This document shows, in pieces, positions 1 to 27,320 of a stretch of 32,000 bases of DNA. The stretch comes from Candidatus Saccharimonadota bacterium (GTDB lineage Archaea > Nanohalarchaeota > Nanosalinia > Nanosalinales > Nanosalinaceae). The stretch spans positions 60,001-92,000 of the forward strand of contig CP012986.1 of assembly GCA_001761425.1 (NCBI GenBank), in the 5' to 3' direction. A program made the position numbers and the translations under genes. Every line of letters starts with the position of its first letter. Position 1 is the stretch's first letter. The notes beneath the pieces are model-generated. The model did not search any database, was not told the origin of the DNA, and worked only from the letters and a program-made list of their open reading frames with translations.

Positions 1-751
1 CTTTCTCGAAGTCTCTCAGGTATTCAGTACATGTCTGGTGTCCGAGGCCTCTACTCCCGGAATGTATCATTATCACGATCTGGTTTTTTTCAAGACCGAA
101 GGCCTTGGCTTTTTCCTCTTCGAAGGTTTCTTCTACTTTCTGTACTTCGAGGAAGTGGTTTCCTGATCCGAGGCTTCCGACCTGTTTGAGGCCTCTCTTT
201 TTAGCGTCTTCCGGGACTTTTTCTGGCTTTCCTGGAAGCCTCCCATTTTCCTCGCATCTTTTGAGATCGCTTTCCTTGGCGTGGCCGTTTTGCAGCATCC
301 ATTCAGCTCCTTTTTCAAGAATTTCTTCAAGATCTTCTTTATCGACGTCGATGTAGCCTCCTTTGCCGAGTCCGCACGGTACTTTGTCGAAGAGGATATT
401 TGCGATTTGTTCCTCTTTTCCCTTGATATCGTCGTATTTGAGCGAGGTTTTGAGGACTCGTACGCCACAGTTTATGTCGTAGCCGATTCCTCCAGGACTT
501 ATTACGCCGTTTTCCATGTCTATGGCTGCGACTCCTCCGATTGGGAAGCCGTAGCCCTGGTGTCCGTCGGGCATGACGATCGAGTGTTTCTGGAGGCCTG
601 GCAGGGTTGCCACGTTTTTGATCTGTTCTAGTGTATCGTCTCCTTTGATCTCTTCCAGCAGTTCTTCGTTTGCGTAGATCCTGGCAGGTTTCTTCATCTT
701 TCCTTCTTTCGGGATCTCGTAGATATTTTCGGATACTTTGTTGAGTTCCAT
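1..751 (-). CDS. rtcB: RNA 3'-phosphate (tRNA-splicing) ligase RtcB, N-terminal ~250 codons; the gene continues beyond the window start
   Basis: Not in the ORF track because it runs off the edge. My reverse-strand translation from ATG (751..749) reads MELNKVSENIYEIPKEGKMKKPARIYANEELL..VMPDGHQGYGFPIGGVAA..GGIGYDINCGVR..GSLGSGNHFLEVQ..IHSGSRGLGHQ. These are the characteristic RtcB metal/GMP-binding motifs. Confidence 0.9.
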   Translation of the reverse strand, partial: MELNKVSENIYEIPKEGKMKKPARIYANEELLEEIKGDDTLEQIKNVATLPGLQKHSIVMPDGHQGYGFPIGGVAAIDMENGVISPGGIGYDINCGVRVLKTSLKYDDIKGKEEQIANILFDKVPCGLGKGGYIDVDKEDLEEILEKGAEWMLQNGHAKESDLKRCEENGRLPGKPEKVPEDAKKRGLKQVGSLGSGNHFLEVQKVEETFEEEKAKAFGLEKNQIVIMIHSGSRGLGHQTCTEYLRDFEK

Positions 752-1215: not shown

Positions 1216-1626
1216 CTATATATCCAGTACTGCCTGTAAAACCCATTTGCCGTCCTCGTGGTCGACTTTCATCTCGCTGTAGGTGGGGGCCTTGATATCG
1301 AGGAGTGCCATCTCATCGCTGATGTTGTCGACGACAATCTTCGCGGTCAAGCGGTGGCCTTCATCCGTATCCTCTATCTCAAGCTCTTCTGCGGACGAGA
1401 CGACGACACCTTCAGTATCCTGAAGGAATATCAGTTCGTCCAGGAAATCAAAAAGCAGAGGTTCATATCCCTCTGACTCGACCTCGATGTCATGGTGGTA
1501 CATGCCTCCTTCACCGCCGACGATCTCGGAGAAGGCCTCCACTGCATCGGAGAACGCCTTCTCTATGGTTTCTCCTTCTGTTCTGAACTTTTCGTCTGCC
1601 GGATGCTCAAGTATCTCGTAGCTCAC
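1216..1626 (-). CDS. Archease (RtcB activator / tRNA-modification chaperone family)
   Basis: GTG start. The N-terminus SYEILEHPADEKFRTEGETIEKAFSDAVEAF matches the archease signature (xEx[LF]EHTAD[IV]xxxxxG), and the ~136 aa length is typical. It lies in the same strand block as rtcB. Confidence 0.85.
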   Translation of the reverse strand: MSYEILEHPADEKFRTEGETIEKAFSDAVEAFSEIVGGEGGMYHHDIEVESEGYEPLLFDFLDELIFLQDTEGVVVSSAEELEIEDTDEGHRLTAKIVVDNISDEMALLDIKAPTYSEMKVDHEDGKWVLQAVLDI

Positions 1627-2341: not shown

Positions 2342-2863
2342 TTAGGTCTTATTTTTAAGGACCTCTCTCATTGCGGAGACAAAGTGTTTTCTAAGTTTCT
2401 CGTCTGAGGCCTCAAGCTCCTCCAGCGTCCAGAACCTGGCTTCCTCTGCATCGTCTCCTGCGGATATTTCTCCTTCCGCCTTTTCCATGTCAGCGGAAAA
2501 GATGAACGCCACCAGTTTCTGGCCTGGAAATCTTTCCAGAGCCATTGATTCAAATATCTCTATGTCCTCTGTCTTGAGTTTCAGGCCTGTCTCTTCTTCA
2601 AGCTCTCTTACAGCAGCATGTGTGGGTTCTTCGCTGTGCTCCAGGAATCCTGCCGGAAGACTCCATTCTCCTTTACCTGGTTCGATACCTCTTTTGACGA
2701 AAAGTATCTCTTCTCCCCTTCTCAGTACTGTCGCAGCCACAGGATCTGCGTTCTGCCATATGATTCTGTCACATCCGGGGCAGTAAGGCCTTTCTCTTCC
2801 CTCTGAATGCTTTTCCTCAAGTTCATGTCCGCAGTACCTGCAGTAACTGGGTTCAAACTCCAT
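2342..2863 (-). CDS. NUDIX hydrolase with N-terminal zinc ribbon (NudC-like architecture)
   Basis: CRYCGHE..CPGCD forms a four-Cys ribbon. It is followed by the Nudix box GEWSLPAGFLEHSEEPTHAAVRELEEETGL (GX5EX7REUXEEXGU). Confidence 0.85.
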   Translation of the reverse strand: MEFEPSYCRYCGHELEEKHSEGRERPYCPGCDRIIWQNADPVAATVLRRGEEILFVKRGIEPGKGEWSLPAGFLEHSEEPTHAAVRELEEETGLKLKTEDIEIFESMALERFPGQKLVAFIFSADMEKAEGEISAGDDAEEARFWTLEELEASDEKLRKHFVSAMREVLKNKT

Positions 2864-2921: not shown

Positions 2922-3470
2922 TTACCGGGAAACATACACTGAATTCTTAGCAGAATACCTGTAATCATGTTGAAGGCCTTCAGAGATACCTATACGGGAA
3001 CTTTCCTCGACCTCTTCTCCCAGGTTTCCTTCCTCAATCCTGAAACTGCCTTCCAGAAGATCCGTTCTATTATCCGCTTTATCTATGTTAAGGGCTTCTG
3101 TAAGCTTTCCAGGCCCATCGCCGAGACTTCCTTCGTCTTCAAGACCTCTCCGCTCTTTCATGACATCGAGGCCTTTCACAGGTTTGACAGCTCTTATCAG
3201 TACAGCTCCAACCTCGTTTTCTTCATGGGCTACGATGTTGAACATGTTATGTATGCCGTAGCTGACATAGACATAGGCCTTGCCAGGTTCTTCGTACATC
3301 GGCGCGTTTCTCTCTGTCTTTCCGTTCCTTGCGTGTGAAGCCGGATCTTTTTCCCCGAGATAGGCCTCAGTTTCCACTATATCAGCTTCGACACCTTCTT
3401 TGATTATTTTACAGCCTAGAAGGCCTTTTGCTACTTTTCTCGGATCCCTGGAGAAGAATTCATATTTCAT
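2922..3470 (-). CDS. mpg: DNA-3-methyladenine glycosylase (AAG/MPG family)
   Basis: IVETEAYLGEKDPASHARNGKTERNAPMYEEPGKAYVYVSYGIHNMFNIV matches the conserved ETEAY..DPASHA..G.T.RN..M...G..YVY..YG core of the MPG family. Confidence 0.85.
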   Translation of the reverse strand: MKYEFFSRDPRKVAKGLLGCKIIKEGVEADIVETEAYLGEKDPASHARNGKTERNAPMYEEPGKAYVYVSYGIHNMFNIVAHEENEVGAVLIRAVKPVKGLDVMKERRGLEDEGSLGDGPGKLTEALNIDKADNRTDLLEGSFRIEEGNLGEEVEESSRIGISEGLQHDYRYSAKNSVYVSR

Positions 3471-24991: not shown

Positions 24992-25291
24992 ATGGTTATT
25001 CCTTCAATCACTTCAGCTATCATCGCAGTAATCGAAGGAAGCTGGATAGCATCATCAATTTTCCTCAAATACTTCTTGATAGGCCTCATCGCCAAAAACT
25101 TTTACCAGGATTCTTTCACCAGGGAGGAAATTGTAGAAGATGTGGTGGAGAGTTCTGAACTTGTAGTACCTCTTCTCATCGTTTCAGGCCTTTTCTTAAC
25201 TGTTTCAGGCCTTGAAGTTACGCCTGTGTTGATGCTTTTCAGCGAACTGGCGGCTCTAGGTTATTTTACGGTGCTTTTCTGGAAGTGCTAG
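24992..25291 (+). CDS. Small membrane protein (99 aa), function unknown
   Basis: Three hydrophobic segments, starting 17 nt after the PRC-barrel gene. Confidence 0.4.
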   Translation: MVIPSITSAIIAVIEGSWIASSIFLKYFLIGLIAKNFYQDSFTREEIVEDVVESSELVVPLLIVSGLFLTVSGLEVTPVLMLFSELAALGYFTVLFWKC

Positions 25292-25614
25292 TCCAGTTTG
25301 TTCTTTACTTCTCTGTGCCATGAATCTATGGCCTCTAAAGTTACTTCCTTGAGTTCGGAAACCGGAAGCGTGGTGTAGATGTAGTAGACTGTCTTGTCGG
25401 TCTTTCCTTCTCTCATGAGGATGTCTTTGTCTATCATTTCTTGGAGGGCTCTCTGTGCGGTGGATCTGTTCCTGTCTACCCGGTCTGCGATCTCTTGAAC
25501 TGTTAACTTGTTCTCCTCGAGTTCGCGGAAGATCTCTCTCTGGAGAGAGTTGAGGTCAAAGACTTCAAATATTATCTCAAGATCCTCTTTGTCCTCAAGA
25601 TCGAGAAAATCCAT
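25288..25614 (-). CDS. Winged-helix transcriptional regulator (TrmB/MarR-like N-terminal domain only)
   Basis: LNSLQREIFRELEENKLTVQEIADRVDRNRSTAQRALQEMIDKDILMREGKTDKTVYYIYT is a classic wHTH with a wing. A TATA-like TTTTAATCTTAAAG lies upstream. Confidence 0.7.
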   Translation of the reverse strand: MDFLDLEDKEDLEIIFEVFDLNSLQREIFRELEENKLTVQEIADRVDRNRSTAQRALQEMIDKDILMREGKTDKTVYYIYTTLPVSELKEVTLEAIDSWHREVKNKLD

Positions 25615-25727
25615 TGTAGAATACTTTACCCTTTAAGATTAAAAGCGTTTCAGAACCGACTCCAGTAAGGGTCAGATAGAAGGACTTCCAGAGATATTTT
25701 TTCCAGGAGAGCTTACAGAAATCTTCT

Positions 25728-25940
25728 CTATCCGCCTGCGATTACGTCAAATACTCTGATCCTGTCCTCGTCTTCTAACTCATGTCTACCTGAGATGATC
25801 GTCCCGTTCCTTGAGACCAGAACCTCCTGCCTCTCGATACCCTCGTCATCAAGAAGCTCGTCCACCATAAGGCCTTGATCGACTTCGATCTCTTTCTCCT
25901 CTTCTTTATCCAGGTCGTCTCTTACGAGTGTGATCCTGAT
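25728..25940 (-). CDS. Ubiquitin-like beta-grasp protein of the ThiS/MoaD/SAMP type ending in Gly-Gly; start codon uncertain (ATC at 25940 or ATG at 25868)
   Basis: Not in the ORF track. The open frame reads (I)RITLVRDDLDKEEEKEIEVDQGLMVDELLDDEGIERQEVLVSRNGTIISGRHELEDEDRIRVFDVIAGG-stop. This matches the ThiS/SAMP2 layout (V.V....E.e....t..dLl........v.vNG..v.....L.dgD.i.v...v.GG). A perfect GGAGGTGA lies 6 nt upstream of the ATC. Confidence 0.6.
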   Translation of the reverse strand: MRITLVRDDLDKEEEKEIEVDQGLMVDELLDDEGIERQEVLVSRNGTIISGRHELEDEDRIRVFDVIAGG

Positions 25941-26236
25941 CCGGGATCACCTCCTTCATCTATCCTTTTCTCATATTTCTCCAGAGCTTCGTTGAAGGCC
26001 TCTTCGGCATCTATGTCAAGATCGTCCGCGACAGCAAACAGAGAAAAAAGTACGTCTCCTATCTCGTCCTTTTTTACTTCAAGTTCCTCTTCTCTCTCGC
26101 CATACTCCGCAGTTTTTGTCGCGTCTTTGGCGACTTCACCGACCTCTGAGACAAGGTCAAGGACTCTGAACGCAGTTGTTCCGCCCAGCTCATGTTCTTC
26201 CATAAACTCAGCTACCTGATCTTGATGTCTCTTCAT
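25922..26236 (-). CDS. mazG: MazG-type nucleoside triphosphate pyrophosphohydrolase (single-domain)
   Basis: LVSEVGEVAKD...(18)...EIGDVLFSLFAVADDLDID fits the EXXE(12-28)EXXD MazG motif. The ATG directly abuts the ogg stop, and a GAGGT lies 7 nt upstream. Confidence 0.85.
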   Translation of the reverse strand: MKRHQDQVAEFMEEHELGGTTAFRVLDLVSEVGEVAKDATKTAEYGEREEELEVKKDEIGDVLFSLFAVADDLDIDAEEAFNEALEKYEKRIDEGGDPGSGSHS

Positions 26237-27097
26237 CTATTCTACCTCTATTATTCCGTTTCTTGCTGCGTGAAAGATATATTCCTGGGCGTAACCTGAG
26301 TGCTCTCCGAAATACTCTCTCATATTCCGGGAGAGTTGTTCGTAGTCATCGCTGTAAAGCTCAGGGTACTGCTTTTTCAGAGCTTTTTCCGCCCATGTAT
26401 CGATCGGATAGGCCTCAAGCTGCTCCTGGGAAAAAAGCAGGACGCAGTCCGCGACTTTATCGCCTACGCCGTAAAGCTCTTTCATCTTCCGGCGGGCTTC
26501 CTCGTAATCCCCCGGGAAATCAGGCTCAAAGCCATCGTTCAGGATCTTCATACTCTCTATAATGTACTTGGCACGGTAGCCGACACCAAGATCTCTCAGA
26601 TCTTCTTCAGAGGCGTGAGATAGTTGTTCAAGCGTCGGAAACCGCAGAAGCTCATGTCCATCGAACTCTACAGTTTCTCCGAACTCCTCTGCTATTTTAT
26701 TGTGCATTTCTTTGATACGGGGAATCCTCATCTGCGGAGAACAAAGGTAGCTTACCAGGCACGGGAAAAAATCGTCCTGAACCACTCTCAGGCCCCATAT
26801 CTCGTCTTTAGCTTTCTCAAGGTTTTCATCCTCTGGAAATTTATCGAAAATTTGTTCGAGATTGTGGTTCAGGCCTAAGGCCTTTTCTACAGTTTTTTTA
26901 TCTGTCTCTGTCTTGACATGCAGTTTTCCATCTTCTTTTTCCTCTATTACTATCGCTTTTCCGTTCTTGAAGCTGTAGAAATGTGTTTTTCCGTCTTCAT
27001 ACAGTTTTCCGTCTATCCTGTGCCAGCAGAAGGTCTGGCCGCAGGTCATGGTCTCTTCCAGGTCAAAGTTTTCTGGAGAGATTTCGAATTCTTCCAT
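26237..27097 (-). CDS. ogg: 8-oxoguanine DNA glycosylase / AP lyase, Ogg1-type (HhH-GPD superfamily)
   Basis: N-terminal OGG_N motif TCGQTFCWH. HhH-GPD motif LYGVGDKVADCVLLFS carries the catalytic Lys, and the downstream PIDTW carries the catalytic Asp. Confidence 0.85.
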   Translation of the reverse strand: MEEFEISPENFDLEETMTCGQTFCWHRIDGKLYEDGKTHFYSFKNGKAIVIEEKEDGKLHVKTETDKKTVEKALGLNHNLEQIFDKFPEDENLEKAKDEIWGLRVVQDDFFPCLVSYLCSPQMRIPRIKEMHNKIAEEFGETVEFDGHELLRFPTLEQLSHASEEDLRDLGVGYRAKYIIESMKILNDGFEPDFPGDYEEARRKMKELYGVGDKVADCVLLFSQEQLEAYPIDTWAEKALKKQYPELYSDDYEQLSRNMREYFGEHSGYAQEYIFHAARNGIIEVE

Positions 27098-27125: not shown

Positions 27126-27320
27126 TCAGTCCGACTTGCTGTAGTTGTGGAAGTTGGCTTTTTTTCGTTCCTCTTCATCTGTGTCCTCGGTCTTTTTTGA
27201 GAATGTTTTGGCATCTCTTTTCAGGTAGCTGCGGTCGCATCTGTGACATTTCACCCGTTTCTGGGCCTTGGTTCTCTGTTTGTATCCACAGTCTGGACAC
27301 TGAAAGTAGACTTCCGGCAT
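27126..27320 (-). CDS. Small zinc-ribbon protein (64 aa; DUF1922-like)
   Basis: CPDCG...(12)...CHRCD forms a four-Cys ribbon, followed by a basic/acidic tail. It lies in the same strand block as aglB and ogg. Confidence 0.55.
   Translation of the reverse strand: MPEVYFQCPDCGYKQRTKAQKRVKCHRCDRSYLKRDAKTFSKKTEDTDEEERKKANFHNYSKSD

Follow-up and report, generated by a model that had tools for sequence, protein, structure and literature searches.

Can a conserved archaeal gene begin at AUC? We addressed this question in a 32,000-nucleotide (nt) window of DNA that is deposited under the name Candidatus Saccharimonadota bacterium and placed by GTDB in the nanohaloarchaeal family Nanosalinaceae (contig CP012986.1, positions 60,001 to 92,000, assembly GCA_001761425.1; all positions below are counted from the first base of the window). 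The gene, here called ubl, comprises 70 codons on the minus strand, running from ATC to TAG (25728..25940), and belongs to the ThiS/MoaD/SAMP superfamily of beta-grasp proteins, as judged from its translation, Pfam, its orthologs, AlphaFold2 (AF2) modeling, and Foldseek. We put the probability at roughly 80% that ubl is a genuine gene for a 70-amino-acid (aa) protein—the last in an ogg-mazG-ubl operon—and that it initiates at the near-cognate codon AUC (25940..25938), a reading that rests on comparison of homologous sequences. The reading frame is open between an in-frame TGA (25949..25947) and a TAG (25730..25728), and it translates as SRIRITLVRDDLDKEEEKEIEVDQGLMVDELLDDEGIERQEVLVSRNGTIISGRHELEDEDRIRVFDVIAGG*, with (M)RITLVRDDL...VFDVIAGG as the predicted product. 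The sole in-frame ATG, GTG, or TTG is an internal ATG (25866..25868, Met25), which gives a 46-aa open reading frame (ORF) without strands 1 and 2 of the fold; this is the only version of ubl in the mechanical ORF list, and public gene calls report it as well. An earlier interpretation of this DNA made without database searches (hereafter, the sequence-only reading) had pointed out the missing canonical start and had named ATC initiation of a product of about 70 aa as one option among several. Its coordinates all proved right on the sequence, and the ATC option is the one that the evidence below supports.

What occupies the start position in other genomes? We gathered DNA sequences for 49 orthologous loci, which reduce to 39 distinct ones, and counted positions back from a conserved Arg, with the start defined as the codon six positions before it. 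The 70-aa orthologs begin M[RNEK][IV]T[LF][VI]RDDL, and the window's ATC (25938..25940) aligns exactly with their Met. Across the 39 distinct loci, this codon is ATC in 27, ATG in 9, GTG in 2, and ATA in 1 (the locus L003, where an ATG one codon further upstream overlaps the mazG stop as ATGA); other sense codons never occur there. The frame itself is conserved as well. The layout GG-TGA-nCC-nGG-ATC is common to all 23 ATC-type loci in which mazG is intact and overlaps ubl, and the in-frame TGA is present in every mazG-overlap locus, limiting the candidate start codons to nCC, nGG, and ATC. The two codons between TGA and ATC are variable (TCC, TGC, ACC, or AGC, then CGG, AGG, GGG, TGG, or GTC), and none of them is near-cognate. 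In 14 of the 27 ATC loci, the window included, there is no ATG, GTG, or TTG at all between the upstream TGA and the conserved Arg. Downstream of the ATC, position −2 is filled by all six Leu codons plus Met and Phe, and position −1 by Val or Ile only, a pattern that indicates protein-level selection on the five codons following ATC. The ATC loci make up at least 18 clusters that are less than 75% identical at the nt level, the lowest identity being 49%. Finally, NCBI coding sequence (CDS) records begin at this very ATC in two complete genomes, that of Ca. Nanohalovita haloferacivicina (CP107255.1) and CP046106.1.

The start position is also marked by a Shine-Dalgarno (SD) element. The last codons of mazG contain AGGAGGTGATCC (25944..25955), whose core GGTGA is kept in all mazG-overlap loci; within it, GGAGGTGA (25954..25947) lies 6 nt ahead of the ATC, bearing out the strong SD that the sequence-only reading had placed there. 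The same core, read as GG-TGA, forms the in-frame TGA (25947..25949) that closes the ubl frame two codons 5′ of the ATC. The window's SD is complementary to the 16S rRNA 3′ end GGAUCACCUCCU, which we take to hold for the nanohaloarchaeal 16S rRNA as well. ATC-type loci have GGTGN 5 to 6 nt 5′ of the start, as do most loci of the ATG/GTG type; because this register is common to both types, the ATC sits where an SD would place a start. The small ribosomal subunit would thus be positioned by the SD in the last mazG codons (AGGAGGUGAUCC in the window, with the core GGUGA conserved), and the initiator tRNA would pair with AUC to yield Met-Arg-Ile-Thr-Leu-Val and so on. AUC does initiate with Met in Escherichia coli (10.1101/063800), and near-cognate codons accounted for ~30% of the putative alternative initiation sites in Haloferax ribosome profiling (PMC7261190). 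We infer that translation of ubl truly starts at AUC with Met and that the output of Ubl is probably low.

Why would a lineage keep AUC rather than AUG? The answer appears to lie in the overlapping gene. mazG (25922..26236, minus strand) encodes a 104-aa MazG-type nucleotide pyrophosphohydrolase (Pfam MazG, 32.5 bits), and its stop TAA (25924..25922) begins 16 nt past the A of the ATC, giving an overlap of 19 nt with the ubl frame in the window. The MazG tail carries the motif G-[DE]-[PA]-G-S-G, which is kept from Halobacteria to Chloroflexota, Bacillota, and candidate phyla radiation (CPR) bacteria. In nanohaloarchaea, the start of ubl coincides with GGA TCN, which encodes Gly-Ser in this motif: in the window, the ATC is contained in GGA TCA (25937..25942), its A being the third base of the Gly codon (25942..25940). 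Any NTG start in this register would turn the Ser codon TCN into TGN (i.e., Cys, Trp, or stop), and ATC is the sole codon one base from ATG that preserves the Ser. The use of AUC rather than AUG would thus follow from the start being embedded in the MazG Gly-Ser codons (GGA UCN). Two bases point to selection that MazG does not account for. MazG needs neither the A of ATC nor the T in GGTGA, and yet both are the same in every one of the 27 ATC loci; among Gly codons in the window's genes, GGA accounts for 39% and GGT for 17%. mazG genes without a downstream ubl (those of loci L002 and L009, and haloarchaeal homologs) vary at these sites. These codon patterns are evidence of selection on the third bases of the two mazG codons from which GGTGA and ATC arise. 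As for the two nanohaloarchaeal comparison loci themselves, L002 (Ca. Nanosalina sp. VS9-1) and L009 have no ubl in the flanks retrieved (4 kb per side, or as far as the contig extends), and their mazG tails, GSPTSG* and GAPDSGG*, are encoded with neither GGTGA nor GGATC.

If the overlap imposes the AUC, what happens where the overlap is gone? A canonical start appears where mazG is absent, decayed, or ending earlier, as would be expected of a constraint that has been released. Loci L122 and L123 carry a ubl that shares 93% identity with that of the window; their mazG has shrunk to a remnant of 24 codons, and an ATG stands at the ubl start (AGATGA, with an ATGA overlap). In mazG-less genomes, including the cultivated Ca. 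Nanohalobium constans, the start is an ATG or GTG 1 to 8 nt past the ogg stop, and a GAGGTG in the tail of ogg serves as the SD. In L105, a 1-nt deletion brings the GTG of the SD into frame. One locus, L112, keeps AGGTGGTAAACC-ATC without a translatable mazG frame, implying that ATC with its SD also stands on its own. The locus can be viewed as a natural experiment on start-codon choice, in which a two-codon overlap with a deeply conserved motif forces AUC and in which the start codon reverts to ATG or GTG once the overlapping mazG is lost.

Is the product a bona fide member of the superfamily? The sequence-only reading had recognized a ThiS/SAMP-type beta-grasp protein with a Gly-Gly end, and several lines of evidence agree. 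Pfam ThiS (PF02597) matches the 70-aa Ubl with 39.6 bits (cut-off 22.5) and the 46-aa part alone with 31.5 bits. The AF2 model of the 70-aa protein, built with 24 homologs, has a mean predicted local distance difference test score (pLDDT) of 88.8 and a beta-grasp fold, with strands at residues 2-8, 13-19, 40-44, 47-49, and 60-65 and a helix at 26-33. Residues 1-24 (RITLVRDDLDKEEEKEIEVDQGL) are modeled as strands beta1 (2-8) and beta2 (13-19) at pLDDT 92. The best Foldseek matches in the PDB are TtuB (5GHA and 5ZTB; template modeling score 0.74-0.80), MTH1743 (1RYJ), and ThiS (1ZUD), followed by SUMO and ubiquitin, all with a probability of 1.00, and the best PDB sequence matches in a profile search are MTH1743, Pyrococcus furiosus SAMP2 (5LDA), PF1061, and TtuB. 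The C-terminal Gly-Gly stands right before the stop (...VIAGG*) and is invariant in all 24 aligned proteins. Ubl does not reach the NCBIfam thiS equivalog TIGR01683 (33.7 bits against a cut-off of 37.45) or the SAMP2 profiles (NCBIfam NF041919, 19 bits against 70; Pfam PF21965, 17.6 against 27); by these scores its likeness to SAMP2 is at superfamily level only. The hallmarks of the proteins are an invariant EVLV core and a DVIAGG end, usually in the form EVLVSRNGTIISG...VFDVIAGG. On this sequence evidence, we class Ubl as a separate, new subfamily within the ThiS/MoaD/SAMP superfamily, seen here only in nanohaloarchaea. By analogy with its relatives, Ubl may be activated at its Gly-Gly end by an E1-like enzyme and serve as a sulfur carrier in tRNA thiolation, as a protein modifier, or as both. 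Among the database entries, one repetitive protein of great length (P0121, 3042 aa) shows 19 short matches to positions 36-53 of the Ubl profile (i.e., the EVLVSRNGTIISG region), probably as a repeat-driven artifact.

Several points weigh against initiation at AUC. The T and C of the ATC are also explained by the MazG Ser codon, and the evidence independent of MazG is limited to two bases, the A of ATC (the Gly third base) and the T of GGT in GGTGA. The ATC loci are phylogenetically related, and codon-usage probabilities computed over them are not independent trials. In E. coli, AUC supports only ~0.02-3% of AUG-level initiation (10.1101/063800). No ThiF/MoeB (E1), JAMM, or NcsA/TtuA partner for a protein of this kind turned up when 38 ORFs of the window were scanned with Pfam. 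Lastly, 13 of the 27 ATC loci do have a GTG, TTG, or ATG within strand beta1 (at position −1, −2, or −4), and a shorter product could start there in those 13 genomes.

This last point underlies the alternative that survives best, improbable as we judge it: translation would start at a downstream canonical codon in beta1, or at another non-canonical codon between the TGA and the ATC, and the ATC would be kept for MazG only. Gene callers do use the beta1 codons where they exist, producing database entries of 65 and 66 aa, and the Ser codon by itself fixes two of the three bases of the ATC. A downstream start is nevertheless impossible in the 14 loci, including the window, that lack such a codon, and the SD spacing of ATG/GTG-type loci fits the ATC, not later codons. 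Between TGA and ATC, the codons differ among loci and none is near-cognate, which argues against another non-canonical start, and if the ATC were kept for MazG alone, the A of ATC and the T in GGTGA need not be invariant, as they are.

Could the frame instead be reached from mazG? A programmed −1 frameshift in the overlap would yield a MazG-Ubl fusion with a free Gly-Gly, and the ATC would then be an internal Ile codon. The two frames overlap by 10-19 nt, ubl lacks a canonical start, and a hairpin is predicted over the overlap in the window's clade, all of which would suit such a fusion; we nonetheless consider it very improbable. The sequence-only reading had raised it as a +1 frame change; the sign is wrong, as ubl lies in the −1 (or +2) frame with respect to mazG. 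Given the in-frame TGA, a shift could take place only within 3 to 8 codons, and none of the 27 overlaps has a heptamer of the form X XXY YYZ. No fused homolog of ~170 aa was found in the best 150 of 492 profile hits (from 1.84 billion representative proteins), and the longer hits (88-125 aa) carry unrelated N-termini. In mazG-less genomes, ubl stands by itself with an ATG or GTG start, and in L112 the SD and ATC occur without a translatable mazG. An internal Ile would be expected to vary (to Val, Leu, or Phe) through the free third position of the Gly codon and never does, and the hairpin is clade-specific with a z-score of −1.47. The alternative is further weakened by precedent, as archaea have a single verified −1 frameshift (PMC8211752).

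We give equally little weight to the idea that the true product is the 46-aa peptide from the ATG at 25868, or that ubl is a start-less, decaying pseudogene. The peptide has in its favor that this ATG is the sole canonical start, that gene callers report it (P0067, a truncated 46-aa database entry standing for 13 member sequences), and that the 46-aa stretch alone retains its above-threshold match to ThiS. Met25, however, is not conserved, with T, S, N, or D in its place in orthologs, and the 24 codons upstream of it show protein-level conservation and synonymous turnover in lineages down to 49% nt identity. Those codons encode the confidently modeled beta1 and beta2, whose hairpin is lost in the short version; its AF2 model has a pLDDT of 81.6 and a predicted template modeling score (pTM) of 0.51, with the five models spanning pLDDT 52-82. 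The model suggests that the fragment is incomplete and says nothing for function. A pseudogene, for its part, would not retain an open frame, an SD, and an ATC in at least 18 diverged lineages. Finally, it is next to impossible that an ordinary start has been lost to faulty sequencing or assembly, whether through a 1-nt indel in GGATCAGGATCA, which the sequence-only reading had also considered, or through an ATG read wrongly as ATC. The repeat GGATCAGGATCA and the GATC motif are an error-prone kind of context, but the stretch from SD to ATC is identical in three independent assemblies of near-identical genomes (Logan SRR7639444; JGI 3300021446, seen in 8 samples; and ENA ERZ27300263), the arrangement is shared by 27 distinct loci that come from many projects, finished genomes included, and an ATG there would destroy the conserved Ser of MazG.

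Having favored initiation at AUC, we asked whether it is coupled to translation of mazG. In all 27 loci, the first base of the stop in the mazG frame is +7, +13, or +16 nt from the A of the ATC. The arrangement is that of a coupled pair: the genes are co-directional, the mazG stop lies 7-16 nt past the ATC in every case, and the SD is inside mazG. In Haloferax, experiments have demonstrated that an intragenic SD helps termination-reinitiation (PMC6728339). Where mazG has been almost completely deleted, in three independent events (L096, L106, and L122), an in-frame mini-ORF of 10-24 codons remains. These mini-ORFs (L096, ~1467..1505; L106, ~1346..1378, encoding MKFKGDLGSK*; L122, ~495..569) start at the mazG ATG and end at or over the ubl start; L107, 93-94% identical to L106, has a full mazG, and L096 is 72-77% identical to L106. 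On balance, we consider coupling of ubl initiation to mazG termination 7-16 nt downstream to be a close call, at or a shade below even odds. Two results temper it: the probability of keeping the three mini-ORFs in frame by chance is ~1 in 27, which is suggestive only, and the ensemble accessibility of positions −14 to +3 is equal in ATC-type (0.43) and canonical-type loci (0.45; P = 0.54). A stronger version, in which ribosomes that end mazG, or a mini-ORF retained to that end, are held by the intragenic SD and restart 7-16 nt upstream of the stop, AUC works essentially as a restart codon only across Nanohaloarchaea, and Ubl is strictly tied, at a low fixed ratio, to ogg-mazG translation, seems to us less probable still, and we advance it tentatively.

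We also considered an SD-sequestering hairpin as a conserved coupling device. In the window, GAGGUGAUCC (25953..25944) is predicted to pair with GGAUCAC-CUC (25936..25926), with the AUC in the loop (10 bp, −15.6 kcal/mol). The hairpin is not significant (z = −1.47), and it occurs only in the clade with the codons AGG ATC ACA; given these properties and the equal accessibility, we rejected it as a conserved device. Two features of the same region deserve mention. The SD tail and start codon together form a 13-nt palindrome, TGATCCCGGATCA (25937..25949, minus strand), and the downstream GGAUCAC that is able to pair with the SD mimics the 16S rRNA 3′ end.

How widespread is Ubl, and in what company is it found? 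We collected 182 homologs, and all of those with an organism name are from nanohaloarchaea (DPANN); the best mazG matches in GTDB genomes are likewise nanohaloarchaeal. The order of the cluster is conserved: a Zn-ribbon gene, ogg, mazG in many but not all loci, ubl, and a small winged-helix regulator. Of the 39 loci whose flanks are long enough, 38 have ogg upstream of ubl on the same strand, showing that the unusual association with ogg and mazG remarked on in the sequence-only reading is real and conserved. The winged-helix gene lies downstream of ubl on the same strand in all 45 of 45 loci, and the Zn-ribbon gene lies upstream of ogg in most. In the window, ogg (26237..27097, minus strand; Pfam OGG_N and HhH-GPD) encodes an 8-oxoguanine DNA glycosylase and is presumed to be the first enzyme gene of the operon; its stop directly abuts the mazG ATG (26236). 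The Zn-ribbon gene upstream of it (27126..27320, minus strand) encodes a 64-aa protein with CxxC pairs in its translation. The regulator (25288..25614, minus strand) is a 108-aa protein resembling TrmB, Lrs14, and Sta1 (Pfam TrmB; NCBIfam Sta1 below cut-off). No thiamine-synthesis genes were found in the window or in the conserved neighborhood. In these reduced-genome symbionts, the ogg-mazG-ubl linkage, together with the small regulator, hints that ubiquitin-like or sulfur-carrier chemistry is tied to the control of oxidative damage. Our literature searches on Nanohaloarchaea or DPANN combined with ubiquitin-like proteins or sampylation returned nothing specific.

Known systems share parts of this picture. 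Like Ubl, the TtuB, SAMP2, and ThiS sulfur carriers (PF02597; 5GHA, 5ZTB, 5LDA, 1RYJ, and 1ZUD) are beta-grasp proteins of ~70 aa with a C-terminal Gly-Gly. Unlike them, Ubl sits in an ogg-mazG operon and not with thiamine, molybdopterin, or tRNA-thiolation genes, and it scores below the equivalog or family cut-offs of ThiS and SAMP2. With regard to the start codon, the AUU of bacterial infC is a conserved non-AUG near-cognate start. Starts of this type, as in ubl, use a codon one base from AUG, behind an SD, that is conserved among orthologs, whereas ubl has AUC, a codon rarely annotated as a start, and appears to owe it to an overlapping coding constraint, not to factor-mediated autoregulation. 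Coupled overlapping pairs (Huber et al. 2019, PMC6728339; PMC10666635) resemble mazG-ubl in being co-directional, with a short overlap and an SD in the upstream gene, in a halophilic archaeon; they differ in that the usual overlap is 1 or 4 nt (ATGA, TGATG) instead of 10-19 nt and in that the restart codon of ubl is non-canonical. The −1 frameshift of Saccharolobus fucA1 (PMC8211752) likewise involves overlapping frames and a downstream frame without a canonical start. In contrast to fucA1, mazG-ubl shows no slippery heptamer, conserved stimulatory structure, or fused homologs, and ubl stands alone elsewhere.

Non-AUG initiation, overlapping coupled genes, and the NCBI annotation of the ATC in two genomes are already known. 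In the literature that we searched, there was no description of a lineage-wide conserved AUC start or of a conserved AUC start in archaea, and neither the overlap with a MazG motif as an explanation nor reversion to a canonical start on loss of mazG was described. The locus has a practical consequence for annotation. Gene callers cut the N-terminus of Ubl because they allow only ATG, GTG, and TTG: by our own count from listed lengths, ~55 of 120 listed database entries of the family are shorter than 69 aa (46-68 aa), and in the shortened entries that were checked at the DNA level the caller began at an internal GTG, TTG, or ATG (e.g., locus L083, entry P0003). Surveys of ubiquitin-like systems in DPANN archaea would inherit this clipped Ubl, with the first one or two strands lost. 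The locus also offers a compact construct for probing archaeal AUC use and its dependence on termination-reinitiation. If the version in which AUC acts as an obligatory restart were true, it would represent natural, lineage-wide obligatory AUC initiation in archaea, created by the Gly-Ser overlap.

Is ubl alone in this respect? A window-wide screen for further genes with an SD and a non-canonical start gave no convincing second case. Elsewhere, a TctA-family transporter gene in CP046106.1 (L124, 4799..6013) has an NCBI-annotated ATC start with no SD upstream.

Other features of the region round out the picture. The 113-nt spacer between ubl and the winged-helix gene (25615..25727) contains an A/T-rich TTTAATCTTAAAGG box ~17-30 nt 5′ of the regulator's ATG; its position suggests a putative promoter of the regulator's own, with a short leader or none. 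Two more repair or sanitizing genes are encoded on the minus strand of the window, a methylpurine glycosylase (2922..3470) and a NUDIX protein (2342..2863), making four with ogg and mazG. The window also encodes a diphthamide synthase, an archease, and an N-glycosylation cluster (STT3, GT4, GT2, and sugar nucleotidyltransferases). Finally, the window and loci L117/L118 are 96.3% identical over 4.5 kb, yet their MazG proteins are only ~67% identical. The divergence is concentrated in the N-terminal half (26236..26080 in the window and 2627..2800 in L117/L118), and the 5′ half of mazG looks like a patch of local replacement or recombination.

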